From contig OZ024743.1 in the NCBI GenBank assembly GCA_964016885.1, positions 11,284,001 to 11,348,000 of the forward strand: a DNA stretch of 64,000 bases, read 5' to 3'. Position numbers and translations under genes: made by a program. Every line of letters starts with the position of its first letter. Position 1 is the first letter of the stretch. Shown piece after piece: positions 2,814-62,058 of the stretch. This DNA is from Eledone cirrhosa (taxonomy: Eukaryota). The notes under the pieces were generated by a model. That model was not told the origin of the DNA. It saw only the letters and a program-made list of their open reading frames with translations, and did no database searches.

Positions 2814-3987
2814 CTGAAACAGGACGTTAGGCAGAGATGATCCACAGAACAACCACTCGTCGATTCATACATAGATGAAAACAACACAAACGTGGTGATA
2901 TTGTTAGTAATATAAACTAAGTATTATAAACTTGTCTTTAAGTTTGTGAAGCAATATGGGCAGGTGCTAATAGTGTAGTTTACGAAAAACGACATGTGAC
3001 TAGGAGGAATCTGTTTCAACTTTCGATTCCTTATATCTTTTCAAAGACACGGGGCCATTCTGAAGCTATGCTCCATCAAGGATGACGAAACTAGACGATG
3101 GAGGCTGAAACTGAAAAGTAGACAACCCGGTTATACTTTTCGTAGCTAAAAAAATCATTTTAAACTTTATTGCCCCAAGGTCTTGAAAAACTAAGATGTA
3201 CAACAACATTCGCATGACTATTTGATTTCAGTTCCAACATTACCACAGCTCGGAACAACAAAATCAGTACAGTAGGTCAATTGGTCTCAGAAGCTGGCCA
3301 AGAATCTGAAGAACATCCTCCTGTGGCTAGAGATATAAGACAACCTAGAGAAGAGCTCTTTGTGAAACATAATTTCAGAGAAGTTCTAAGTGACATATGA
3401 CAAACATGGAGATCAGATAGAGACTTATAATCTAAACTTTAGATTCTCAATGGGGGCCGTTTCGTAGCTCCAGGGGGGCGTTATGCAGTAAGGGTGGGTT
3501 AGGGGGCGCTTTGCAGTAAGGGGGCGTTTGAAACTTTGAGGGCGCTAGAGGCCCCTTAGTTTGGTAAGTTTTATAAGTCATATTTGTACGTCTCTTAGAC
3601 AGTCAGTGATTTGAATGAAGAAAACAAAGAAAATAAATTAAAGAAGCTTATCAACGAATTCCCTAGGGGGATAAAAGAAAATCAAAAGAAATCAAAGCGA
3701 ATGAAAGGAAGGACTACTTCAACAGAAATGACAAGAAGAAGCAATGGTGGTGAACATACACACACATACATACACACACACGTATATACACATACAAACA
3801 CACACATATATATATATACACACACAGGCCGGCGTTAGTGTTTGATGAAGTTGAGAACCTGGTCAGCTTTCAGCCAGAAGTGTGGTATTTAATCTCCCTA
3901 GATAATAAAATCTGGCGACAAAAATGTTCTCCTTACCAAAAAAAGAAGACATAGATCATATCAACATCCTTACACACTTAAATATGA

Positions 3988-4644
3988 ATGCATGTATATA
4001 TACAAATGTCATTAGCTAAGATCTTTCTTTCCCTTATTACGAAGTATTTTCCCCCTACACATAAATATAGTAAATTTTTTAATAGAAATACTATTAAATT
4101 TTTTTACTCTACGACTCCTAACCTTGCACATAACATCACAGCTTCAAATTTAGCTAAACTACCTAGCCGTAGGAACACGTGCAACCCTGTAGTTAGTACT
4201 AACTGTAATTGTAGGAATCGGGTTGATTGCCCCCTATCCGGGAAATGCCTCTCTAGTAACATTGTCTACAAATGTAAGGTTGTAATACCCACGTCCCGTA
4301 GGGCCTACATAGGGTTAACTGCCAATAGAATCAAGCAGCGTCTTTACATGCATTCCCATTCTTTTCGTTACCCTCTAAGAAGGAATATGACGTCACTTTC
4401 AGCTTATATCTGGAGTCTAAAAGACAACCACACCCAATATAAGTTACACTGGGAGATCCTAGCTAGGGCTAGATCGTATAACGGAAATAAAAGACCATGT
4501 GACCTCTGCGCCGCTGAGGCCCTGGAAATACTCTACGCCACAGACCACATCTTAAACAAAAAATCTGAGGCAATTTCGGCTTGTAAACATAAATTTCACA
4601 AAACTTTCCTGTATTACAGCCCCACGTTATACCCTAACGGATAG
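3988..4644 (+). CDS. C-terminal part of a Penelope-like (Naiad-type) ORF: linker plus GIY-YIG endonuclease, 5'-truncated
   Basis: CxCx5C linker (CNCRNRVDC), IVYKC...AYIGLT, conserved R, H..SF, CDLC...E, LNKKSE and CKH motifs; no RT core. Confidence 0.88.
   Translation: MHVYIQMSLAKIFLSLITKYFPPTHKYSKFFNRNTIKFFYSTTPNLAHNITASNLAKLPSRRNTCNPVVSTNCNCRNRVDCPLSGKCLSSNIVYKCKVVIPTSRRAYIGLTANRIKQRLYMHSHSFRYPLRRNMTSLSAYIWSLKDNHTQYKLHWEILARARSYNGNKRPCDLCAAEALEILYATDHILNKKSEAISACKHKFHKTFLYYSPTLYPNG

Positions 4645-6683: not shown

Positions 6684-6686
<3 letters not shown>
6225..6686. mobile_element. Fold-back PLE relic: 108-bp inverted arms (6225-6332 / 6434-6541) plus 3' extension, between (TA)n tracts
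   Basis: Near-perfect inverted arms; each contains ATAC-CTGATGA-(long stem II ACCGG/CCGGT)-GA(A/G)G-TGATCA-T(A/G)-GTAT hammerhead relic. Confidence 0.8.
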
Positions 6687-6720
<34 letters not shown>

Positions 6721-6723
<3 letters not shown>

Positions 6724-6965
6724 GTGTGACAAGAAGCTTGTTTCCCAACCACATATTTCCGGATTCAGTCTCACTGCCCGAGCCGACCAAAGCCCTGTGA
6801 GTGGATTTGATAGATCGAAACTAAAAGAAGCCCGTCGTATATATGTATATATGTCTGTGTGTGTCTTTGCGTTTGTGTTTGCCCTCCCACCAATGCTTGT
6901 TGGTTTGTTGACGTCCCCATAATTTACCAAGGTGATGCTCCAGCATGGGCGTAGTCCAGAGACAG
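6721..6965 (+). mobile_element. SINE of a second family, internally deleted
   Basis: tRNA-like head (AAGAAGCTTGTTTCCCAACCAC..GGATTCAGTCTCAC) and GCCGACCAAAGCC.TGTGAGTGGATTTG..AGAAGCCCGTCGTATA body; a related piece lies at about 59200-59272 (minus). Confidence 0.6.
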
Positions 6966-7109
6966 AAAAAAAGTAAAATATATATATGTGTGTGTGTGTG
7001 TGTAGAAGAGGGGTCTCAAACTCAAGGACACAAAAGGGCTATTACGTCCTGGAGGAGAGGCACAGTGAGCCAAACGTGGTGGTGGATGAACATTTTCACC
7101 AGTTATAAT

Positions 7110-7323
7110 CATTTCTACTATAGGAACAAGGCATGAAATTTGGGGTTTAGGGTTCAGTCGATTGCATCGATCCTAGTACACAACTGGTACTTAATTCATC
7201 GACCCCAAAAGGATGTAAGGCAAAGTTGAGATCAGCGGAATTTGAACTCAGAACGTAAAAACGGAAGAAGTACCGTTAAACATTTCGCCAGATGTGCTAA
7301 CGATTCCACCACCCCGCCGCCTT
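7110..7323 (-). mobile_element. tRNA-head SINE with 18-bp TSD
   Basis: TSD ATTTTCACCAGTTATAAT at 7092-7109 and 7324-7341; B-box GAGTTCAAATTCC on the minus strand. Confidence 0.9.
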
Positions 7324-7384
7324 ATTTTCACCAGTTATAATGCGATATGAAATATTGGTTCTATCACGGGCCACAGATAAGTAG

Positions 7385-7432
7385 TTTATCTCCAACAGAG
7401 GGCTCATGTGTGAGCCCTCTGTTGGAGATAAA
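7385..7432. repeat. Perfect 22-bp-arm hairpin
   Basis: TTTATCTCCAACAGAGGGCTCA-tgtg-TGAGCCCTCTGTTGGAGATAAA. Confidence 0.9.
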
Positions 7433-7710
7433 TAGATAGATAGATAAGTTTCTTTTATTTGCCACTAGGGCATCAAAAGTGGGACAAGTACAAAGGGGGG
7501 AGTTTACACAAAAAGGCGTCCTCAATAAGGAGGAGGCAATAACAAAATATAAAAATAAAATAAGATATAACAAAAAATAAAATTTTTAACAAAATCCTCA
7601 ATAGAGAGGAGGCGCCTTGGGGGGTCGCACACACCCCCGAAAAAAGTGTGCAACCCTTTTCCTCAGGAGCACAGAGAGGGGGTGCTCCCTCGTTCCTTCC
7701 TCTTTTCCAC

Positions 7711-10700
7711 CTACAGGCTTATGTAAAGAGAAGGCCCATTCACACGGGCCATTCTCGCCACTTTCACCCACCTTTCATAAAAACGACTGGGGTGCAGCAC
7801 CTCTCTCTCCATCCTGATCCTTCTTCCGAAATGATATCGGAAGAAACAGACCAGTTGTTGGCCAGAGAGAAAGGTGCCTGACCTCAGTCCTTTCAGACGC
7901 GTCCACCATACAACCTCTTTCGCCATGGCTATTACGCACAGAAACACCGCCTCTGCTTCATCTTTGAAGGGGGGAGGCGGCTTGATCATTACAATAGACT
8001 CGGTGGTCAACCGGATCGGTCCCACCCTTGACAGCAGTTGTTCGACATAGCCCCACAGATCGGCTACGCCCGAGCAGTGTACCAATGCGTGTGCAACGGT
8101 TTCCTCGTCGCACACGCATCTGGGACAGATCTTTTTGGCGGGGTCCCTACCCGGGCGCCCGTGTCTGTAGAGCCTTTCTCGAACGGGTAAAGCCCCTCGG
8201 TAGCACTGCCAGGCCAGGGACTTCTGGAAGTTGTCCATAGGTCCCGGGCTGAATGTCCTACCGAACAGGCTGGCCAGTTCGTCCTCCTCCATGTCTAGGG
8301 CTTCTCCGAGGGCGTCGTCGCACCTGCTGCGTACCAGCCCTCTATAGAATGTTGCGGTGGAGTCTCCACTGATAACCGGATCCGCCTGCCAGAGGGCGGT
8401 GAGCGCCTGGGCACACTCAGTGTGCCAGGCGCCCAGTTTTCTCGGTCTTTGCTTGACCCAGGATTGCAGCTCGGTGAGTGAGACGAGTCTGGGAAAGGTT
8501 CGTCTCACAAACGAGGCCCACACCGGTTGTCCGGTGAGGAATACGTAGAGGTGCCGTAGCCTTAATGCGTGTTTACGCATCATTAGCCACGGCATCCCCA
8601 GCCCTCCTTTCGAAGGGTGTTGACAGCAGATGGATCTCCTCACCATAGGAGCCCGCCTCTTCCAAAGGAATTGGAAGAGCGCGCGCTCCATCTTGGTGAG
8701 GGTTTCCCTTGGGCAGGGCACTACGGTCAGGCGGTAGTAGATGACGGACGCTATATAAGTGTTCGCCACCTCCGCCCGACCTTTCAGGGATAGTTTGCAA
8801 CTGGCCCACTTCTGGGTCAGTGCAAACACCCTGTTCGTAACCTCCGCCCAGTTTTTCTCCACCTGGAGGTCCGGTCCGAACCAGACCCCGAGCAACTTCA
8901 CCGGGCCCTCCGTCCAGCGTCCGACGACGCCATCAGAGGGCATCGGTCTGCCCCTCCACGTGCCGAGTTGCAAACCGATCGACTTGTCCCGGTTCAGCTT
9001 AGCCCCTGTGAACTTTTCGTACTCCTCCAGTAAGGTGCCGACCGCCTCGATTTCGGAGGCCGTTGACACCATCACTGTCACATCATCGGCGTAGGCTGAC
9101 ACCGCTTTCCGCAATCCCGGTTCCAAAGGGATGCCCTGCAACAACTCCAACTTCCGCAGTAGTGGCTCGAGAGTCAACACATACAGAAGGGAGGAGAGAG
9201 GGCACCCTTGTCGGATGGACCGCGCGATTTTGAACGGCTCCGAGAGGTAGCCGTTCACCTTGACCCTAGAGCAGATGCGGCTGCTGTGCATAGCAGTGAT
9301 CCAGCCCCTGAAAACGGGTCCGAAGCCTGCCGCCGCTAGCACCGCATCCAGGTAACCATGGTCGACCCTATCGAACGCCTTAGATTGATCCAAGTTGATC
9401 AGAGCCCCACCAAAGCCGGGTTCGTTCCCAACCCTCTCTATGATGTATCGCATGAGGTGGAGGTTGTCATGGATGGACCTGGACGGGATAGCGCATGTCT
9501 GCGCATCTCCCACCAGGTTGCCCACGACAAGCGCCAACCTCTTTGCTAGCACCTTGGCCAAAATCTGTAACTCTGTATTTAGCAGAGTTATGGGCCTGAA
9601 GTTACTTATTTCGTCCCCCTTGTTCTCGTCCTTCCTCACTAGCGTGACTACGCCCTTGGTCACAGTACAGGGAATTCTCCCGTTCTGTTGCCAGTTGCAG
9701 TAGACCGCCTCGAGGAGATCGGGGAACAAGTCCGGCATAGCTAGATATAATTCGTAAGGAAGACCATCGAGACCCGGGGATTTGCGTTTGCCGCATTGGC
9801 TCAGCACGTCCTCTATCTCAGCGGCCGAAATCGGCTCCTCGCAGGACTTCGCCTCCCTGTCCGAGAGGCGCGGCAGGCCGTCGAGGTATGGACCGAAGTC
9901 CACGTTCCCAACCGGCTCCCCGCCCCTCCCGAACAGTCGGGCAAAGTGCCTTTGAAAGGCCTCACACATCTGCTTAGGCTCAAGAATCGCCCGTCCATCC
10001 AGGTCTCGCAAAGACCGGATGGTGGATTTAGTTCCACTGTTGGCCTCTGTCACGCGGGCCCAGCTAACAGCTTTGGCCCCCTCGTTCCCTAGAGCACGTA
10101 TTTTACTTCGGACAACGCAGCCTTCGTGCTTCGCGTCGAAAAACTGGCTCAAAGCCGTTCTCGACGCTAGCACTCTGGCCACGTCGCCGCTTCTAATTGC
10201 CTCTTCTACTCTATCTATTAGCTCCCTTTCCTTCCTATTCCTATCCGCAGCTAGAACCTTACTAAATTCAATCGAGACTACTCTAATCTCTCTCTTTAGA
10301 GATACCCACCACCTGCTGTTGACGATCGCTCCAGTCAACCGTTCCTTAACTAACGTACTAATCCGATTCCTGTAGGCTCTACTTGCCGGCAAGGACAAGT
10401 TGAGCTTCCAGTAACCGGGGCCCTGTCTATGAGGTCTGTCAAGGTTGACCATGCAGGTCACTAATTTGTGGTCTGAATAGCCAACCATGCGCATTTTTGG
10501 ACAACTTAAAACGTCCTTATCCTTAATTCTAACTAAGAACCTATCTAGGTACGACCTAGATGATCCGCTACGATTTGCCCAAGTCCAGGTTGGCGCAGTC
10601 GGAAAATCTAGTCGATATCTATCGGCCAGGTCAAATCGACCGATTAACCCTTTGAGGCTATTACACCCCTCTCTATCGGGGCAGGCCCCTACGTAGTCCC

Positions 10701-11148
10701 AGCGTGCATCTAGGATACCATTCCAGTCCCCCACTAATAGCAAGGAGCGGGACGTCCCTAGAAAAGTCTCCAGACGATGGAAGAAGTCCGGCCGCATTGA
10801 CCCGAAAGGGCCGTAGGCGGCTACCAACCTAAACGCTCCACCTTTACCACTGCCAAGGTCCAGAACCACTAGTCGACCCTCCGGGTCCAAATGTACCATC
10901 TGTGTTGCGAGACCCAGATGTTTTTGCAGCAGAACGACAACTCCACCCCCGCCTCCGGGCTGACAGAGAGATGCGTGCATCTCAAAGTCATCAAAGGTGG
11001 GGGCCAGCTGTCGCACGTTGCTGATCCGGGCCTCGCAAATAACCATCACATCTATACGTTGTGACCTGAGGTCATTTAGAAGCATTGCTTGCTTCCAAGT
11101 TGAGCCCAGGCCACGCGCATTTAAACAGCCTACTCTTAGCATAGCCAT
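7711..11148 (-). CDS. LINE ORF2: APE endonuclease, reverse transcriptase and C-terminal zinc-binding region (1145 aa from first ATG)
   Basis: EN motifs LNARGL, GDWN, YLDRF, SDHK; WKLN; RT motifs KSPGLDG, FRPITLLN, LDQSKAFDRVDH, RQGCPLS, YADD; CPRC...ETVAHALVHC. Confidence 0.96.
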   Translation of the reverse strand: MAMLRVGCLNARGLGSTWKQAMLLNDLRSQRIDVMVICEARISNVRQLAPTFDDFEMHASLCQPGGGGGVVVLLQKHLGLATQMVHLDPEGRLVVLDLGSGKGGAFRLVAAYGPFGSMRPDFFHRLETFLGTSRSLLLVGDWNGILDARWDYVGACPDREGCNSLKGLIGRFDLADRYRLDFPTAPTWTWANRSGSSRSYLDRFLVRIKDKDVLSCPKMRMVGYSDHKLVTCMVNLDRPHRQGPGYWKLNLSLPASRAYRNRISTLVKERLTGAIVNSRWWVSLKREIRVVSIEFSKVLAADRNRKERELIDRVEEAIRSGDVARVLASRTALSQFFDAKHEGCVVRSKIRALGNEGAKAVSWARVTEANSGTKSTIRSLRDLDGRAILEPKQMCEAFQRHFARLFGRGGEPVGNVDFGPYLDGLPRLSDREAKSCEEPISAAEIEDVLSQCGKRKSPGLDGLPYELYLAMPDLFPDLLEAVYCNWQQNGRIPCTVTKGVVTLVRKDENKGDEISNFRPITLLNTELQILAKVLAKRLALVVGNLVGDAQTCAIPSRSIHDNLHLMRYIIERVGNEPGFGGALINLDQSKAFDRVDHGYLDAVLAAAGFGPVFRGWITAMHSSRICSRVKVNGYLSEPFKIARSIRQGCPLSSLLYVLTLEPLLRKLELLQGIPLEPGLRKAVSAYADDVTVMVSTASEIEAVGTLLEEYEKFTGAKLNRDKSIGLQLGTWRGRPMPSDGVVGRWTEGPVKLLGVWFGPDLQVEKNWAEVTNRVFALTQKWASCKLSLKGRAEVANTYIASVIYYRLTVVPCPRETLTKMERALFQFLWKRRAPMVRRSICCQHPSKGGLGMPWLMMRKHALRLRHLYVFLTGQPVWASFVRRTFPRLVSLTELQSWVKQRPRKLGAWHTECAQALTALWQADPVISGDSTATFYRGLVRSRCDDALGEALDMEEDELASLFGRTFSPGPMDNFQKSLAWQCYRGALPVRERLYRHGRPGRDPAKKICPRCVCDEETVAHALVHCSGVADLWGYVEQLLSRVGPIRLTTESIVMIKPPPPFKDEAEAVFLCVIAMAKEVVWWTRLKGLRSGTFLSGQQLVCFFRYHFGRRIRMEREVLHPSRFYERWVKVARMARVNGPSLYISL

Positions 11149-11172
11149 GTTGGTAGTGAAGAGAAAAGGCAC

Positions 11173-12960
11173 TTACCTCTCTGCGTCCCGGGTATCGGGC
11201 TGCACAATTTCCATTAGGGTGGGGGATGGGTTGTTGGGTGGGGTGGTGGTTTGTGGAAGTGTGGGGGCATCAGTGTGATGTGTGGTTGGGGAGCTTGGAG
11301 TTGTGTGGGTGTTTGGGGAGGGGGTGGGATAGTTTTTTAGGAGGACGCGGTTAATGGGCCCGACGCAGGGGGGACCCACGTCCTCTTTAAAATTGTTTTT
11401 TAAAGTTTTATAGGTGTCCTGTGGGGCCTTAATCATTTTGAGGTGGGGGAAATCCCCTGCCTGGGTGAAGTTAGGCCCTTGTGTTTTTATTAGATTGTTG
11501 TTGTACACAATGTTTAACAGTTTTTTGTTTCTTGTATTTATGTATGTGTATGCATGTTTTTGTTTTTGTGTGGTGTTTTTTGTTTGCTGTTGTTGTGAGC
11601 TCTTTTGTGTTGGTGTCAGTGTTATGTTTTGGGGAGGGGTTTTTTTCATTTGTGTGTCTGAGGTGTGTTTTCTTTTTTTTCTTTTGATTGTGTGGAAGTG
11701 CTCCTCCTCGTCTGACGACGAACTAGGGTCATCTTCCGCGTTGGAAGGGAGGGGTATATTTTCGGGTTGTGTTTGCGGTACGGGTGTTTTGGAAATTGTT
11801 TTTGTTTTTTGAGTGGAGGGGATGGGTTGGACATTGTTTTGTTTTGGTTTGAGCTGTGGTGGTTGTTTTTGTAGTGGTAGTTGTGGTGATTGTGTTGGTT
11901 GTGCAGTTGTTGGTGGTGTAGGCAGGATTGGGGTTTTCTTATTAAGTTGGGGACAGACAGCCCTCAGGTGACCTCTGGTTCCGCAGAGGTAACACGAGGG
12001 CCGTCTACCCTCAACGGTAATGTTGATGAAGGTTAGATCATCCAGTATGACGCGTTCAGGGATCTGGGCGATCCTTTCGGGCCTCATTTGAACTACAAGT
12101 TCGAGGCTCGTTCCACTGAACGCGTCACCCGATGCCTTTCCCATGGACACCAGCATGTCATCCTCCAGGTCCAGAAAACCTGTCAAAACCCACCATATGT
12201 CCATAATCGGCAGGATGGTGTGGATTTTTATTTTTTGTGTTCTTCTACCCATGTACGTAGGGTAGAAGGTGTATGCGGTGGATGTGATTGGTTTGATGGA
12301 CAGTTTCACTGCTGTGTCCCTGTCCTTCATGAGAATGGATAGACTCCCGTAGAGTCTATCCTTCTGAATGAAGGTGATGTCCTTCATGACGTCTTTTAAA
12401 ACCAGCTCTATCTCGCTCTGTGATGGTTGAGCTGGTTTTTTACTTTTGTTCGAGATTGTCCTAAACATGACCGTGTTTAGGAGTCTCTGGCTTTTTAGTT
12501 CCGGGGGGGAATGGATTGTGAATGAACCATTTTCCCCGTACACTATATATTTTTTCGCATCCGCCAGTAGCTCCTTCGCTTTTGTTATATCTACTGGCAG
12601 ATAGTCGAGGGTTTTCCTTGTCGTCTCGGCGAAGGAGAAATTTTGTTTGTTTGTGTTGTTGTTGTCGTTGGTGGTGTTGTTGTTATCATTGTTGTTGTTG
12701 TCACCGTTATTGGTCTTGTTGTTGTTATTGTTATTGTTATTGGTGTTGTTTTCGTCCGTCGCATTGTTGTTGTTGCTGTTGCTGCTGGTTCTTTGAGTTG
12801 TTGCCATGGCAACGTCAAGTTGTCGGTTAACAGGTGGAGAGAATTCTTCCTCTGGCTGACCTTTCTTCTTGACCTCTGCTACTGTGACAGTGGCAGGGGG
12901 AAGCTGTAAGTTCATCTTCCCCTTTCCTCCTTCGAATTTTGGTGAAGAAGCTTCGGCCAT
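11173..12960 (-). CDS. LINE ORF1 (595 aa), nucleic-acid-binding protein with CCHC zinc knuckle
   Basis: Directly upstream of ORF2; CYLCGTRGHLRAVC knuckle; Asn/Thr-rich N-terminus; basic KRKKRK patch. Confidence 0.9.
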   Translation of the reverse strand: MAEASSPKFEGGKGKMNLQLPPATVTVAEVKKKGQPEEEFSPPVNRQLDVAMATTQRTSSNSNNNNATDENNTNNNNNNNNKTNNGDNNNNDNNNTTNDNNNTNKQNFSFAETTRKTLDYLPVDITKAKELLADAKKYIVYGENGSFTIHSPPELKSQRLLNTVMFRTISNKSKKPAQPSQSEIELVLKDVMKDITFIQKDRLYGSLSILMKDRDTAVKLSIKPITSTAYTFYPTYMGRRTQKIKIHTILPIMDIWWVLTGFLDLEDDMLVSMGKASGDAFSGTSLELVVQMRPERIAQIPERVILDDLTFINITVEGRRPSCYLCGTRGHLRAVCPQLNKKTPILPTPPTTAQPTQSPQLPLQKQPPQLKPKQNNVQPIPSTQKTKTISKTPVPQTQPENIPLPSNAEDDPSSSSDEEEHFHTIKRKKRKHTSDTQMKKTPPQNITLTPTQKSSQQQQTKNTTQKQKHAYTYINTRNKKLLNIVYNNNLIKTQGPNFTQAGDFPHLKMIKAPQDTYKTLKNNFKEDVGPPCVGPINRVLLKNYPTPSPNTHTTPSSPTTHHTDAPTLPQTTTPPNNPSPTLMEIVQPDTRDAER

Positions 12961-13192
12961 TTAAAAAATATTGACTTTTCAACAAGAAAAAACTTTTTTT
13001 TTGTTTAACTATTTCGCCTAAAGGCGTAGAATATTTTGAGAGACTGACCAGATCAAAGTTTGACCTGGCAGTCCCTCTACAAAATGGTACAAAAATTAAA
13101 GTTATCAGACAAGAATTTCTATAGAAATTTAAACAGAACTTACTCAGCAAGTTATACGCGTGTGTCCATCCCAGAGATAGATAGATAGATAA

Positions 13193-13233
<41 letters not shown>

Positions 13234-13294
13234 CGTGTACCAAACACACACACATTTCTTACACTCTCTGTCCCTCCCTCTTTCTCTCTTCATT

Positions 13295-13336
<42 letters not shown>

Positions 13337-13516
13337 GAGCGTTGTTATTTGGCGTTGTTGAAAAGATCAGTGGCTTTTGACCTGGAAACAAAAAACTGTA
13401 GAAAAAATTATTTCTGTACCCAAACCAAGGCACAAACACACACAAGTTTGTGTGTGTGTATGTGTGTGGGGGGGGGGGGGGGTCTATGTGTGTTTGTGTG
13501 TGTCTGTGTATCTATC

Positions 13517-13579
<63 letters not shown>

Positions 13580-13993
13580 GATACAAATACTACTTTCTCA
13601 CTGTCACCAAGCTTCTCAATTCATTCGCTGCTAAATATTTGATTTTTCTACGAGGTATTTGATTTTGCAAGGTACTATTTTTCCCCTGAGTTTGTGATTT
13701 CAGAGAAAGGTAAGAAATTCTTCATATTTTACATCTTTTGTATTTTGACTTTACAGTTTGAATTGTAGAATTGTTTATCCAATCAAAATATTACAACATC
13801 TAACAGTGAAATATAGAATTTAAAAAAAAAAGCTTTTTCGACTGAAATCAAGTCTTTGAGAACATTCACGTCTATTTTTCAAAAATATATAATTTGAAAT
13901 AGTTTGCTTTAGTTTAGGACTGAAACTTTTTTTGTATTTAATTCGTACGGGTATTTTTTAAAGATCTTTTTAAAGATTCTAACATAACTTGAT

Positions 13994-14450
13994 TTGGCCC
14001 ATTACGTGCACTGCGGCATTCATATTGCTCAACTTATTGTAACTAAGTCTGTACAAGCTTCACTTATCAAAAATGTTCTAGGTTGCGTGAATGAATTGCG
14101 GAAACTATATAGTACGTCAGGAAAATTTAAGCAAGCGTATTTATCACAACATGATGAAGAAAATGAAGTATCGTCACCACGCTCCTTAACACCTGTGTGC
14201 CCTACTCGATGGCTAACAGGACTTTCTGCAGTCAAAGCCCTTCTTGACAATTATTCAGATGTCCCTATTTCTTTACAAGAGGCAACAAATGAGTTTGGCA
14301 CCAACATTGCATCCAGAGCTAATGTTATTCTTACGTGTCACTCTCCGGGCCAATGTGTTCTTGGATTGTACGTTGTAATTCCATTACTTCAATTCCTTGA
14401 AGGCTTGAAGAAATCTTTTCAAAGTACCACCTTCAATCTAGGTAGCATGT
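13994..14450 (+). pseudogene. hAT transposase fragment, Tip100/ZMYM1-like subtype
   Basis: YVHCGIHIAQL (CxxH motif), VCPTRW, ASRAN.IL. Confidence 0.75.
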
Positions 14451-15203: not shown

Positions 15204-16619
15204 TACGAGGTCAAAGTAAGTCGATTTTTTTATTTGTAGTTGCAATCTGACTGGACTGGAAACCATCTACCACAATTCACTTACTCATTTGTTGTATATA
15301 TTTTACCGTTTACTAATGAATATACCCTCTTACGTGGTCATGAAAACCCTCTTGCGTGGTCTCTAAGCTCACAAAGCGGAGGGGACATCAAGTTAGATAT
15401 CAACATTTATTCTGTCAGTTTCATTAAAGGGAAAATTGGAAAGCTTTGAAATAATACAATTGCCACTTTCTTCCAGATAAGAGCACTCTTTGGATAGACA
15501 GAGTTGCTCTTGTATAAATGTTCAAAATAGCTGGTATCGTCTGGTGGGAATATAACAAATTCAACTGGTCCTTATTCATAAAAAAGAACATTTATGTTCC
15601 TTTTTTTGAAATTTATATACTTCCTTTCAAGGAATGTATTTATACTTTCAACTGCCTGCAATGGTATCTTTGGAATATCGTTAATCAATTTTTTAGTAAT
15701 CTACTGATATCAAAATCAGTAGTATATTGAAAAATGGAAGAATAGGGTAGGGGGCGTTTCGTGATTTTTGGGGGAAAAGGGGGGCGCTTGGCCGAAATGG
15801 GTTGAGAACCTTTGATCTAAAGAACAATTAGGTGTTTCTACGAGACAAACTGTTTCGGGCCACCAACAAGATTTATGGTTGCTGCAAAGGATCAGCCAGA
15901 GAGAAGGTTGTGGAATAATACTGTAGACAGAATCATGAATGCTGAGAGATTCACAAAGAATGAAAGGAGTGGGGAAGTAAAGTATAATATCAAATAGCTT
16001 GAAAAGGGGTTATGAGTCCGCTCAACATAGCATGAGGAAACGTTGAAAGGAGGATGGTTGTAAATATTCTGTCAAAAGAATCAGGTATGTTATGTTTTTT
16101 CCAAATGCAAAGCAATGAGTTAGAGACAATCGAAACGTTGTTGTATAATGCACTATTATAGCAGAGTCTGTGTATAACCTAGAAAAGAAATTGCAGGCGA
16201 GGAAAGAAAATCTAAAGTCAAATAGACTCAGAATAAAATAAGCAAAGCCTAATGTTTTAATAACTAGGAAAGAAGACAAGACCCAGGGAAATGTCTGTAT
16301 TCAATACTCACTAAAGGGGTATGTAGAAATTATATTCAGGGTACTCAATTCAAAATCAAGAGATGAAGGTGGGGTAGCTGGTAGGCTAAAAGAAAAAGTT
16401 AATTTGTATTTTAGTCAGCAGTCAGAGCTCCCCGCCCCAACAAAAAATATTAAGTCATTTCCAATGCTCAAATAGCTCCATAAAAGTAATTGCTTCTGTA
16501 ACCTAATCAGCAATTGGAGGGGGGGGGGGGGCTTTGAAACACATAAACTAGAATAAGGAAAGGATGGAAAAAGTTTAGGGATTTGTTACATCTACTTGCG
16601 ACAATAGGATTCTCCGAGT

Positions 16620-51570: not shown

Positions 51571-54500
51571 TGTGGTGTTGGTGGTGGTGGTGGTAGTGGT
51601 GTTGGTAGTGGTGGTGGTAGTGGTGTTGGTAGTGGTGGTGGTAGTGGTGGTGGTAGTGGTGGTGGTAGTGGTGGTGGTAGTGGTGGTGGTAGTGGTGGTG
51701 GTAGTGGTGTTGGTAGTGGTGGTGGTAGTGGTGCTGATGGCGGTGTTGGTAGTGGTGGTGGTAGTGGTGGTGGTAGTGGTGTTGGTAGTGGTGGTGGTAG
51801 TGGTGGTGGTAGTGGTGTTGGTAGTGGTGGTGGTAGTGGTGGTGGTAGTGGTGGTGGTAGTGGTAGTGGTAGTGGTAGTGGTAGTGGTAGTGGTGGTGGT
51901 GGTGGTGTTGGAAGTGGTGTTGGAAGTGGTGTTGGTGGTGGTAGTGGTGTTGGTAGTGGTAGTGGTGTTGGTAGTGGTAGTGGTGGTGGTAGTGGTAGTG
52001 GTAGTGGTGTTGGTAGTGGTGTTGGAAGTGGTGTTGGTAGTGGTAGTGGTGGTGGTAGTGGTAGTGGTAGTGGTGTTGGTAGTGGTGTTGGTAGTGGTGT
52101 GGGTAGTGGTGGTGGTAGTGGTGGTGGTAGTGGTGGTGGTAGTGGTGCTGATGGTGGTGGTGGTAGTGGTGGTGGTAGTGGTGCTGATGGCGGTGTTGGT
52201 AGTGGTGTTGGTAGTGGTGTTGGTAGTGGTGGTGGTAGTGGTGGTGGTAGTGGTGTTGGTAGTGGTGGTGGTGGTGGTAGTGGTGGTGGTAGTGGTGCTG
52301 ATGGCGGTGTTGGTAGTGGTGTTGGTAGTGGTGTTTGTAGTGGTGGTGGTGGTAATGGTGTTGGTAGTGGTGTTGGTAGTGGTGTAGATAGTGGTGGTGG
52401 TAGTGGCGTTGGTAGTGGTGGTGGTAGTGGTGGTGGTATTGGTGTTGGTAGTGGTGCTGATGGTGGTGGTAGTAGTGGTGCTGATGGTGGTGTTGGTAGT
52501 GTGGTGGTAGTGGTGTTGTTAGTGGTGTTGGTAGTGGTGTTGTTAGTGGTGGTGGTAGTGGTGCTGATGGTGGTGGTGGTGTTGGTAGTGGTGGTGGTAG
52601 TGGTGGTGGTAGTGGTGTTGGTAGTGGTGGTGGTAGTGGTGTTGGTAGTGGTGGTGGTAGTGGTGTTGGTAGTGGTGTTGGTAGTGGTAGTGGTGCTGAC
52701 GGTGGTGGTGGTAGTGGTGCTGATGGTGGTGGTGGTAGTGGTGCTGATGGTGGTGTTGGTAGTGGTGTTGGTAGTGGTGGTGGTAGTGGTGGTGGTAGTG
52801 GTGGTGGTAGTGGTGGTGGTAGTGGTGGTGGTAGTGGTGTTGGTAGTGGTGGTGGTAGTGGTGTTGGTAGTGGTGTTGGTAGTGGTAGTGGTGCTGACGG
52901 TGGTGTTGGTAGTGGTGCTGATGGTGGTGTTGGTAGTAGTGGTGCTGACGGTGGTGTTGGTAGTGGTGCTGATGGTGGTGTTGGTAGTGGTGTTGGTAGT
53001 GGTGGTGGTAGTGGTGGTGGTAGTGGTGGTGGTAGTGGTGGTGGTAGTGGTGGTGGTAGTGGTGTTGGTAGTGGTGTTGGTAGTGGTAGTGGTGCTGACG
53101 GTGGTGTTGGTAGTGGTGCTGATGGTGGTGTTGGTAGTAGTGGTGCTGACGGTGGTGTTGGTAGTGGTGCTGATGGTGGTGGTGGTAGTGGTGCTGATGG
53201 TGGTGTTGGTAGTGGTGTTGGTAGTGGTGGTGGTAGTGGTGGTGGTAGTGGTGGTGGTAGTGGTGGTGGTAGTGGTGTTGACGGTGGTGTTGGTAGTGGT
53301 GCTGATGGTGGTGGTGGTGGTAGTGGTGCTGATGGTGGTGTTGGTAGTGGTGGTGGTAGTGATGTTGGTAATGGTGGTGGTAGTGGTGTTGGTAGTAGTG
53401 GTGGTAGTGGTGCTGACGGTGGTGTTGGTAGTGGTGCTGATGGTGGTGTTGGTAGTGGTGTTGGTAGTGATGTTGGTAATGGTGGTGGTAGTGGTGGTGG
53501 TAGTGGTGTTGGTAGTGGTGCTGATGGTGGTGTTGGTAGTGGTGGTGGTAGTGATGTTGGTAATGGTGGTGGTAGTGGTGGTGGTAGTGGTGTTGGTAGT
53601 GGTGCTGATGGTGGTGTTGGTAGTGGTGGTAGTGTGGTGGTGGTAGTGGTGTTGGTAATGGTGTTGGTAGTGATGGTGGTAGTGGTGTTGGTAGTGGTGG
53701 TGGTAGTGGTGCTGATGGTGGTGTTGGTAGTGGTGGTGGTAGTGGTGCTGATGGTGGTGTTGGTAGTGGTGGTGGTAGTGGTGTTGGTAGTGGTGTTGGT
53801 AGTGGTGGTGGTAGTGGTGCTGACGGTGGTGTTGGTAGTGGTGCTGATGGTGGTGTTGGTAGTGGTGTTGGTAGTGGTGGTGGTAGTGGTGCTGATGGTG
53901 GTGGTGGTAGTGGTGCTGATGGTGGTGTTGGTAGTGGTGGTGGTAGTGGTGCTGATGGTGGTGGTGGTAGTGGTGCTGATGGTGGTGTTGGTAGTGGTGG
54001 TGGTAGTGGTGCTGATGGTGGTGGTGGTAGTGGTGCTGATGGTGGTGTTGGTAGTGGTGTTGGTAGTGGTGGTGGTAGTGGTGTTGGTAGTGGTGGTGGT
54101 AGTGGTGCTGATGGTGGTGGTGGTAGTGGTGCTGATGGTGGTGTTGGTAGTGGTGGTGGTAGTGGTGCTGATGGTGGTGTTGGTAGTGGTGGTGGTAGTG
54201 GTGTTGGTAGTGGTGGTGGTAGTGGTGCTGATGGTGGTGGTGGTAGTGGTGCTGATGGTGGTGTTGGTAGTGGTGCTGATGGTGGTGTTGGTAGTGGTGT
54301 TGGTAGTGGTGGTGGTAGTGGTGCTGATGGTGGTGTTGGTAGTGGTGTTGGTAGTGGTGGTGGTAGTGGTGCTGATGGTGGTGGTGGTAGTGGTGCTGAT
54401 GGTGGTGTTGGTAGTGGTGGTGGTAGTGGTGCTGATGGTGGTGGTGGTAGTGGTGCTGATGGTGGTGGTGGTAGTGGTGGTGGTAGTGGTGTTGGTAGTG

Positions 54501-57024
54501 GTGCTGATGGTGGTGTTGGTAGTGGTGGTGGTAGTGGTGCTGATGGTGGTGTTGGTAGTGGTGCTGATGGTGGTGTTGGTAGTGGTGGTGGTAGTGGTGC
54601 TGATGGTGGTGTTGGTAGTGGTGCTGATGGTGGTGTTGGTAGTGGTGGTGGTAGTGGTGTTGGTAATGGTGTTGGTAGTGGTGTTGGTAGTGGTGTTGGT
54701 GGTGGTGGTAGTAGTGGTGCTGATGGTGGTGTTGGTAGTGGTGGTGGTAGTGGTGTTGGTAATGGTGTTGGTAGTGGTGTTGGTAGTGGTGTTGGTAGTG
54801 GTGCTGGTGGTGGTGGTAGTAGTGGTGCTGATGGTGGTGTTGGTAGTGGTGGTGGTAGTGGTGTTGGTAATGGTGTTGGTAGTGGTGTTGGTAGTGGTGG
54901 TGGTAGTGGTGTTGGTAGTGGTGGTGGTAGTGGTGGTAGTAGTGGTGCTGATGGTGGTGTTGGTAGTGGTGGTGGTAGTGGTGTTGGTAATGGTGTTGGT
55001 AGTGGTGTTGGTAGTGGTGGTGGTAGTGGTGGTGGTAGTGGTGCTGATGGTGGCGGTGGTAGTGGTGCTGATGGTGGTGGTGGTAGTGGTGCTGATGGTG
55101 GTGTTGGTAGAGGTGTTGGTAGTGGTGGTGGTAGTGGTGGTGGTAGTGGTGTTGGTAGTGGTGCTGATGGTGGTGGTGGTAGTGGTTCTGATGGTGGTGG
55201 TGGTAGTGGTGCTGATGGTGGTGTTGGTAGAGGTGTTGGTAGTGGTGGTGGTAGTGGTGGTGGTAGTGGTGTTGGTAGTGGGGTTGGTAGTGGTGGTGGT
55301 AGTGGTGCTGATGGTGGTGTTGGTAGTGGTGTTGGTAGTGGTGGTGGTAGTGGTGGTGGTAGTGGGTTGGTAGTGGTGGTGGTAGTGGTGGTGGTAGTGG
55401 TGCTGATGGTGGTGGTGGTAGTGGTGCTGATGGTGGTGTTGGTAGTGGTGGTGGTAGTGGTGTTGGTAGTGGTGCTGATGGTGGTAGTGGTAGTGGTGCT
55501 GATGGTGGTGTTGGTAGTGGTGGTGGTAGTGGTGTTGGTAGTGGTGCTGATGGTGGTGTTGGTAGTGGTGCTGATGGTGGTGTTGGTAGTGGTGGTGGTA
55601 GTGGTGTTGGTAGTGGTGCTGATGGTGGTAGTGGTAGTGGTGCTGAAGTTGGTGGTGGTAGTGGTGTTGGTGGTGGTGGTGGTAGTGGTGCTGATGGAGG
55701 TGTTGGTAGTGGTGCTGGTGGTGGTGGTGGTAGTGGTGCTGATGGTGGTGGTGGTGGTAGTGGTGCTGATGGTGGTGGTGGTGGTAGTGGTGCTGATGGT
55801 GGTGGTGGTAGTGGTGCTGATGGTGGTGGTGGTAGTGGTGCTGATGGTGGTGTTGGTAGTGGTGCTGATGGTGGTGTTGGTAGTGGTGCTGATGGTGGTG
55901 TTGGTAGTGGTGCTGATGGTGGTGTTGGTGGTGGTGGTGGTAGTGGTGTTGGTAGTGGTGCTGATGGTGGTGTTGGTAGTGGTGGTGGTAGTGGTGTTGG
56001 TAGTGGTGCTGATGGTGGTAGTGGTAGTGGTGCTGAAGTTGGTGGTGGTAGTGGTGTTGGTGGTGGTGCTGATGGTGGTGGTGGTAGTGGTGCTGATGGT
56101 GGTGTTGGTGGTGGTGGTGGTAGTGGTGTTGGTAGTGGTGCTGATGGTGGTGTTGGTAGTGGTGGTGGTAGTGGTGTTGGTAGTGGTGCTGATGGTGGTA
56201 GTGGTAGTGGTGCTGAAGTTGGTGGTGGTAGTGGTGTTGGTGGTGGTGCTGATGGTGGTGGTGGTAGTGGTGCTGATGGTGGTGTTGGTGGTGGTGGTGG
56301 TAGTGGTGTTGGTAGTGGTGCTGATGGTGGTGTTGGTAGTGGTGGTGGTAGTGGTGTTGGTAGTGGTGCTGATGGTGGTAGTGGTAGTGGTGCTGAAGTT
56401 GGTGGTGGTAGTGGTGTTGGTGGTGGTGGTGATAGTGGTGCTGATGGTGGTGTTGGTAGTGGTGCTGATGGTGGTGGTGGTAGTGGTGCTGATGGTGGTG
56501 TTGGTAGTGGTGGTGGTAGTGGTGTTGGTAGTGGTGCTGATGGTGGTAGTGGTAGTGGTGCTGATGGTGGTGTATGGTAGTGGTGGTGGTAGTGGTGTTG
56601 GTAGTGGTGCTGATGGTGGTGTTGGTAGTGGTGGTGGTAGTGGTGTTGGTAGTGGTGCTGATGGTGGTAGTGGTAGTGGTGCTGATGGTGGTGTTGGTAG
56701 TGGTGGTGGTAGTGGTGTTGGTAGTGGTGCTGATGGTGGTGTTGGTAGTGGTGCTGATGGTGGTGTTGGTAGTGGTGGTGGTAGTGGTGTTGGTAGTGGT
56801 GCTGATGGTGGTAGTGGTAGTGGTGCTGAAGTTGGTGGTGGTAGTGGTGTTGGTGGTGGTGGTGATAGTGGTGCTGATGATAGTGGTGGTAGTGGTGGTT
56901 GTGGTACTGATGGTGTTCGTGTTGGTAGTGGTGCTGGTAGTGGTGCTGATGTTGGTGTTGGTAGTGGTGCTGATGGCGGTAGTGATGGTTGTGGTACTGA
57001 TGGTGTTCGTGTTGGTAGTGGTGT
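51571..57024. repeat. 5.45-kb (GGT/AGT/GTT/GCT/GAT) minisatellite with 12-bp building blocks and 60- and 180-bp higher-order periods
   Basis: Lines 53881 and 53941 are identical; 55981, 56161 and 56341 are identical. Confidence 0.95.
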
Positions 57025-61363: not shown

Positions 61364-61771
61364 TGTGGTCACTTAGATGTGTTTTATTATATACTGTGAC
61401 GTAAACTGCGAACGAATATTAGAGGAAGAGAATAAGATTGACATATAGAGGAGGGAGTGTGAGCTGTGTTGATGGAAACATTAAACATAACTGAACATGT
61501 GTGCTTGTGTTTAACTGTGTGTGTGTGTTGGTGATTATATGGTGTATGTGTCTATGTATGAAGCTATACGGTATGTGTATGACACTATGGTGGGTGTGAC
61601 TGTGTGTGCGTGTGTGTGGTGCTATGTGGTATGTGTGAGTGTATGTATATGTTTGGGAAAATGTGATGTATGTATGTGTTTGTGAAAATGTGGTGTATGT
61701 GCTATATGAATGTATGAGAGTATGTGTTATATGAGTTAATATGTATGTGGTGCATGTAAATATGTATAAAT

Positions 61772-62058
61772 GTTTTCTTTATTAACCACAAGGGTTGACA
61801 CAAAGTATAACATTAAGGACGGTACAGGACGGTACAGGACGGTACAGGACGGTACAAATGGGCATTCCTGCGTGTAAAAACAAAAACATAAAACCAAAAA
61901 CAAAGGATGTAACAAAGAAATGAAACAAAGGAAAATTCCCCAATTGGGGAGAGACCTCCGAGGGTCACTCGTGGAGAAAGCCCACAAAAAAGTCACGGTG
62001 ACCCTGACTACCCTCTTTCAGTTTTCTGCTCCGCTCCCCCACCAGTTCCACCGCCCCT
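61772..62058 (-). mobile_element. 3'UTR fragment of a related Tx1-like LINE
   Basis: GTTTTCTTTATTAACCACAAGGG resembles GTTTCTTTTATTTGCCACTAGGG at 7448-7470; internal (AGGACGGTAC)4. Confidence 0.55.

Follow-up and report, generated by a model that had tools for sequence, protein, structure and literature searches.

A young LINE family of the octopod Eledone cirrhosa inserted at TAT(C/A)T, mainly in GATA/TATC microsatellites

Among the retrotransposons without long terminal repeats (non-LTR elements) specific for microsatellites, Waldo, Mino and Dong belong to clades other than Tx1, namely R1 and R4. Their targets are (ACAY)n, (AC)n and (TAA)n, respectively (PMC3812793), while the teleost families Kibi and Koshi insert in (TC)n and (TTC)n and crocodilian Tx1 families in (TTCC)n or (TTTC)n (PMC4494074, PMC3812793), further microsatellite-specific cases being described in PMC3812793 and PMC4640811. 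According to the 2013 review among these sources, microsatellite targeting by elements with an apurinic/apyrimidinic endonuclease (APE) is mechanistically not well understood (PMC3812793). Sequence-specific nicking has been documented for the endonuclease of Xenopus laevis Tx1L, which inserts in Tx1D, and the beta-hairpin loop is the element grafted in studies of the L1 endonuclease (PMC1950540). For coleoids, an expansion of L1-Tx1 elements has been described (PMC8967140), with 13 recently active families and 421 insertions reported from Octopus vulgaris (PMC13282606). The present analysis concerns a stretch of 64,000 nucleotides from Eledone cirrhosa (GenBank assembly GCA_964016885.1, contig OZ024743.1, positions 11,284,001 to 11,348,000 of the forward strand), hereafter the window, in which an intact, full-length long interspersed nuclear element (LINE) lies within a (GATA)n array.

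This copy represents, as we consider probable, a very young family of the L1 group, likely of the Tx1 clade, with insertions in a single orientation at TAT(C/A)T, the likely reason being that its APE endonuclease nicks the GATA strand behind the last base of 5'-A(G/T)ATA-3'.

Insertion at TAT(C/A)T in pre-existing repeats

Genome-wide counts were made by exact sequence patterns in the 3.0 Gb assembly. At 1,891 of the 1,946 occurrences (97%) of the element's terminal 28-mer, TAT(C/A)T stands two subfamily-specific bases further on, the 3' flanks being TATCT in 1,652 (85%), TATAT in 239 and other sequence in 55 cases. In a background of 20 stretches of 10 kb each, taken at round coordinates, TATCT has a frequency of 0.28% per position and TATAT of 3.0% (together 3.3%). 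Hence, the flank pattern is far beyond chance, with an enrichment of about 300-fold for TATCT and about 4-fold for TATAT, corresponding to a roughly 70-fold preference for TATCT per site, and random flanks of the other copies, which an earlier note on this DNA had named as an outcome speaking against targeting, were not found. In a sample of 40 flanks, all begin with TAT, none is A-rich and TATCTATC is present in 22. With TAT(C/A)T as the minimal site, 12% of insertions fall in (TA)n. TATAT accounts for nearly the same share in the CT-ending subfamily (44 of 346, 12.7%) as in the rest (195 of 1,545, 12.6%), and eight TATAT copies among 49 show no clustering (permutation p 0.45, low power); a donor-specific inheritance of the TA target is therefore not supported. 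Insertions also occur where unique DNA offers a single TATCT (L079, L080, L242). A separate family targeting (TCAA)n was considered and dismissed, its 3' end occurring only twice, at one locus.

The window array belongs to a dispersed host repeat, of which 14 paralogues were fetched. Nine are free of the LINE and carry the variant repeat unit once, and because these empty sites already hold it, the variant-bearing 21-mer found at both junctions of the window copy, earlier noted as a possible target-site duplication (TSD), is a real one, with a length of 17-21 bp when allowing for microhomology. In the other five, the array contains 3' ends of related LINEs, the positions differing, and one of the five holds three stacked fragments. 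Among 27 5'-truncated copies, a set from which three internally rearranged ones (L071, L089, L094) were excluded, the 5' junction matches the 3' flank within 35 nt in 21 cases (one of them weak), and TATC or TA is found upstream. Where the site is (TA)n or unique DNA, the duplicated sequence itself opens the 3' flank, without any added TATC. TSDs outside of microsatellites were determined for L079 (16 bp), L081 (9 bp), L187 (16 bp), L242 (12 bp) and L080 (11 bp), measurable lengths overall ranging from 9 to 21 bp. As empty sites hold the array, truncated copies carry TSDs and copies at (TA)n or unique sites gain no TATC, GATA is the target and not a tail. Stacking behind older copies was seen at 16 of 40 5' ends, as against 16 background arrays with 2 cases flagged, or up to 4 when judged by eye, a sample too small for concluding on more than reuse of the target.

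At the 5' end, the result is different in part. The element starts with GGG, and in the window copy 14 nt separate it from the 5' copy of the TSD. Both junctions are available for 71 full-length copies of type A, the subfamily of the window copy (36 + 34 + window), most of which lie in pure repeat and are uninformative. Of the 13 junctions judged informative by eye (L124 and L262 share one, counted once), 11 show one to five extra ATCT units, while seven informative truncated junctions (L061, L079, L081, L083, L088, L187, L197) are without such a leader. Furthermore, (TATC)2 is present within 40 nt upstream in 38 of 40 type-A 5' ends, fetched in coordinate order regardless of flank. The possibility raised earlier that GATA is part of the element's own ends thus fails for the 3' end, which adjoins the target, and holds for a short ATCT leader of full-length copies; GATA serves as target and, over a short stretch, belongs to their 5' end as well. 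From these junctions, transcription of full-length donors would appear to begin at an A of the upstream repeat. In six copies (L237, L241, L245, L248, L255, L256), a few bases between TSD and leader fit neither target nor element and are possibly untemplated.

Age, exchanged modules and an (ATT)n sister family

In similarity searches with the 3' end and with the 5' end, all of the 40 matches scored each time are at 99-100% identity. The family comprises about 2,000 copies. Both ORFs (open reading frames) are intact in 23 of 40 full-length copies chosen for likeness to the window copy. Of 40 5' ends taken without selection, 34 belong to copies running through to a 3' end about 5.7 kb away, and 11 belong to intact copies; by extrapolation, roughly 100 of the 361 type-A copies that share the 5'-terminal 27-mer exactly would be intact. 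Pairwise divergence of the unselected copies has a median of 0.8%, and in three pairs with different flanks the two copies do not differ at all over 5,720 nt, so that a high divergence between copies, named beforehand as an argument against current activity, was not observed. The nearest relative of the window copy differs at 7 positions. Between the ORF2 of the window copy and that of L108, 22 codon differences are synonymous and 7 non-synonymous; Cys at ORF2 residue 1101 is private to the window copy, the other 49 copies compared all having Arg. These values point to a very young family, which by its sequence age and intact ORFs is a candidate for present activity.

In many copies, the sequence agrees with that of the window copy only downstream of the endonuclease. 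In these type-B copies, 5' untranslated region (UTR) and ORF1 are different (about 69% nucleotide identity to type A) and the endonuclease deviates by about 12% in amino acids, while from residue 240 on identity is about 99.5%. Reverse recombinants, with a type-A 5' part and a 3' part diverging by 3-10% from about 2.5 kb on, make up 6 of the 34 unselected copies. These patterns indicate that subfamilies exchanged a 5'UTR-ORF1-endonuclease module limited at the endonuclease boundary; all A, B and recombinant copies use the same target. In two type-B copies, L068 and L091, ORF1 and ORF2 read as one ORF of 1444 and 1514 aa, respectively.

A sister family came up in flanks and background and has 8,039 exact 3' ends. 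The flank of its first 30 copies is (ATT)n or a close variant, although with a single reference and unreliable breakpoints in several of them, target versus tail is less well shown for its TSDs than for the window family. Intact copies occur head to tail (L306-L310, at 55.42-55.45 Mb and 27.12 Mb) and show several kinds of 5' end. Compared with the window copy, ORF2 identity amounts to 60% in the endonuclease and 78% in the reverse transcriptase (RT). A fragment of the sister 3' UTR also lies in the window at about 61770-62000 on the minus strand, followed by ATTTATAC and not by (ATT)n.

How the target may be chosen

If the endonuclease sets the preference, as we think likely, its nick in the GATA strand would expose a 3'-OH from which reverse transcription starts at the last base of the element, perhaps aided by pairing with a few read-through bases, and the other strand would be nicked at a distance of 9-21 nt further along. 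With donor transcription starting at an A of upstream ATCT units, the complementary DNA would end in a few AGAT units, which could base-pair with the target and extend the array by further units. Every insertion duplicates its target, and the fresh array at its 3' end is used again by later copies. A constant TATAT share and the lack of TATAT clustering are as expected for a constant protein preference, and the use of single TATCT sites and the documented nicking by the Tx1L endonuclease also favour this reading.

A live rival, though in our estimation an unlikely one, is target choice by RNA-DNA pairing, in which a lax endonuclease would nick A/T-rich DNA, only ends pairing with read-through (UAUC)n would prime and the flank would be inherited. 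It is live because every donor has the target in its flank, and it would agree with the missing poly(A) and an AATAAA only 7 nt from the end, so that the RNA likely runs into the flank, with the repeat units that the 5' end demonstrably carries, with a hairpin loop nearly identical between the TATC and ATT families and with a target surviving the exchange of endonucleases. It is difficult to reconcile with 239 TATAT insertions lacking copied TATC, with the constancy of their share across subfamilies and no sign of a common donor (p 0.45, at low power), and with the use of single TATCT sites in unique DNA. In an extended form, which appears rather improbable to us, the LINEs would carry their address in the RNA: transcripts would start and end in the flanking microsatellite, and pairing of the repeat with nicked DNA, not the endonuclease, would decide on landing. 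If true, arrival in a new repeat would be enough for a lineage to switch between TATC and ATT, and the lineage would make its own target arrays longer and more numerous. Very little credence is given to (TATC)n as the element's own tail and head, made during reverse transcription at otherwise arbitrary sites; the (ATCT)1-5 leader beyond the TSD at 11 of 13 junctions would be in line with it, but the empty paralogous sites already holding the array and the TSDs with which 3' flanks begin at TA or unique sites refute it for the 3' end, and truncated copies with TATC or TA upstream speak against it as well. Random insertion followed by mere survival or accumulation in microsatellites is hardly credible at all: passive accumulation near CA repeats has been reported for Drosophila Waldo-A/B (PMC3812793), but here the motif stands at a fixed distance and in one orientation at 97% of ends, including copies too young for selective filtering.

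Several observations nevertheless weigh against a choice of target by the endonuclease in a young family. The nicking preference itself is a prediction, and no protein determinant of the target is evident, because two endonuclease variants about 12% apart share it and because the beta-hairpin loop is nearly the same in the (ATT)n sister (WANRSGSSRSY versus WTNRIGSSRSY, two positions differing from type A). The motif is missing at 55 of 1,946 ends, and the background of only 200 kb contains arrays made by these elements. Neither TSD nor repeat is found at the 5' junction in 6 of the 27 truncated copies, two of the 13 informative type-A junctions (L120, L249) need no ATCT leader, and two full-length type-B junctions (L075, L080) are without one. 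Assembly polishing, finally, could partly account for the identity between copies.

With two young families having intact copies, near-identical loops that presumably read the target and different repeats, plus recombinants with exchanged endonucleases, the genome offers a ready-made set for testing how repeat targets are chosen. The LINE also feeds its own target arrays, which is of interest for how tetranucleotide microsatellites originate and for designing markers in octopods. The surprise is moderate, since this kind of system is already known.

Anatomy of the window copy and comparison with known elements

The coordinates of the element and its surroundings are compiled in Table 1.

Table 1. 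Features of the window copy and adjoining host DNA (window positions).
Feature	Position	Strand	Remarks
LINE copy, full-length, intact	7447..13172	-	both ORFs open, no poly(A)
3' UTR	7447..7710	-	AATAAA at 7459-7454; 1,946 exact copies of last 28-mer
ORF2, 1145 aa	7711..11148 (11148-7711)	-	APE endonuclease and RT; cysteine knuckle at C-terminus
APE endonuclease domain, aa 1-239	10432..11148	-	end is 3' limit of module exchanged between subfamilies
RT core, aa 512-755	8884..9615	-	Pfam RVT_1; YADD 686-689
Spacer of 24 nt, ORF1 stop to ORF2 start	11149..11172	-	ORF listing
ORF1, 595 aa	11173..12960 (12960-11173)	-	ends rich in Asn and in Pro/Thr; a single CCHC knuckle at aa 322-338
5' UTR, presumed internal promoter	12961..13172	-	361 exact copies of 5'-terminal 27-mer
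5' leader (ATCT)3-CT, 14 nt, outside TSD	13173..13186	-	likely copied from donor RNA
TSD, 5' copy	13187..13207	-	same 21-mer as 7426-7446
TSD, 3' copy, 21 bp, with variant unit	7426..7446	-	identical to 13187-13207; empty paralogues hold variant once
Pre-existing (GATA)n array, the target	13187..13233	+	predicted first nick on + strand after 13207
Left part of the dispersed composite repeat hosting the GATA array	6686..7425	.	paralogue alignment
Host repeat, right part (rest of array and flank)	13208..14004	.	paralogue alignment
Perfect 22-bp inverted repeat, overlaps left TSD	7385..7432	.	private to this host-repeat copy; absent from 14/14 paralogues

The uninterrupted ORFs with endonuclease and RT catalytic motifs claimed in the earlier note were recovered. 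Endonuclease residues N10, E39, Y112, D141, N143, D202, D226 and H227 and the YADD motif of the RT line up with human L1 ORF2p, and Exo_endo_phos (E 2e-8) and RVT_1 (E 5e-26) pass the Pfam cut-off in ORF2, while zf-RVT (E 4e-5) in ORF2 and zf-CCHC (E 0.05) in ORF1 remain below it; the single CX2CX4HX4C motif of ORF1 is conserved in both ORF1 types. Poly(A) is indeed absent, AATAAA being followed after 7 nt by TATC. A protein search gave a protein of Argonauta hians as closest named homologue (67%). Splice-donor-like sequence spans the ORF1 stop (11170-11178) and acceptor-like sequence lies at the ORF2 stop (7705-7730). An ORF1 end joined to the 3' UTR, as in a copy lacking ORF2, was found at none of 79 ORF1 ends in the fetched loci and is not listed in contigs of one sequencing run (X4), with splicing still possible in both cases. 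The claim that all other transposable elements of the window are broken was checked in part and stands to the extent that the 64 kb contain no second ORF2 homologue and, apart from an ORF of 218 aa (3988-4644), no further long non-repetitive ORF. This ORF, without Pfam match at E 0.1, presumably resembles the GIY-YIG endonuclease of Penelope-like elements.

A Tx1D-like transposon as host was rejected; the host repeat is a composite, with undefined ends, of microsatellites and pieces which we take to be similar to short interspersed nuclear elements (SINE-like). Pieces of it lie at about 3450-4009, 6686-7425, 13208-14004 and 15695-15820, with 358 candidates at 85-94% identity, and its GATA array has been hit again and again by these LINEs. 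An insert at 7092-7341, also presumed SINE-like, is flanked by 18-bp direct repeats (7092-7109, 7324-7341) and common to the paralogues. The perfect hairpin adjoining the 3' junction of the insertion replaces a weaker quasi-palindrome of all 14 paralogues and looks like the product of a local template switch. A 5.4-kb G/T-rich tandem array of period 24 (51572-56972) produces spurious long ORFs.

The element is an APE-type non-LTR retrotransposon of the L1 group, an assignment based on ORF1 and an ORF2 with N-terminal APE endonuclease, RT and C-terminal Cys knuckle, variable TSDs and 5' truncation. Membership in the Tx1 clade is likely. A CCHC zinc knuckle in ORF1 is a feature of that clade, and the motif seen here stays below the Pfam cut-off. 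In a quick maximum-likelihood tree of 44 RT rows, its careful search unfinished and its deep nodes open, the window copy falls together with proteins of Argonauta and the ATT family (SH-aLRT 100) and separately from a plant L1 row, the sole row named Transposon TX1 bearing an automatic name and not being a verified Tx1 reference. When compared with solved structures, ORF2 is closer to L1 than to R2, matching L1 ORF2p over aa 8-856 (E 1e-47) and R2 in the RT only (E 3e-19). With human LINE-1 (PDB 8sxt and others), the family shares two ORFs, the endonuclease-RT-Cys layout, catalytic residues, TSDs and 5' truncation, but differs in the CCHC knuckle of ORF1 and in lacking both a poly(A) tail and the TTTT/AA target of mammalian-type L1.

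In the literature searched, a LINE targeting GATA/TATC was not found; Repbase, Dfam and subscription journals lay outside this search, so that prior naming is possible. Microsatellite-specific Tx1 families are known as a kind, and the GATA/TATC target is apparently unreported. The 13 L1-Tx1 families of Octopus vulgaris (PMC13282606) are from an octopod as well and may include the present one; a term search of the main text of that paper did not return the word 'target'. Of the elements from other clades, Dong has the target of the ATT sister family, while Waldo and Mino use repeats different from that of the window family (PMC3812793). Kibi, Koshi and the crocodilian Tx1 families are likewise APE-type and microsatellite-specific, and where PMC4494074 applies a criterion of one sequence type in >20% of flanks, the window family reaches 85% with TATCT. 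Likened by target type only, it differs from Kibi and Koshi in its octopod host and in 97% TAT(C/A)T, mainly (TATC)n, instead of (TC)n or (TTC)n, and a repeat-derived 5' leader and module exchange are not found for such families in the available text of PMC4494074 and PMC3812793. Tx1L resembles it in an endonuclease domain of equal length (1-239) at the ORF2 N-terminus and in sequence-specific insertion into a repeat (PMC1950540); however, whereas Tx1L uses one site in a DNA transposon, the window family takes a 5-bp motif in simple repeats anywhere, the composite host repeat included.

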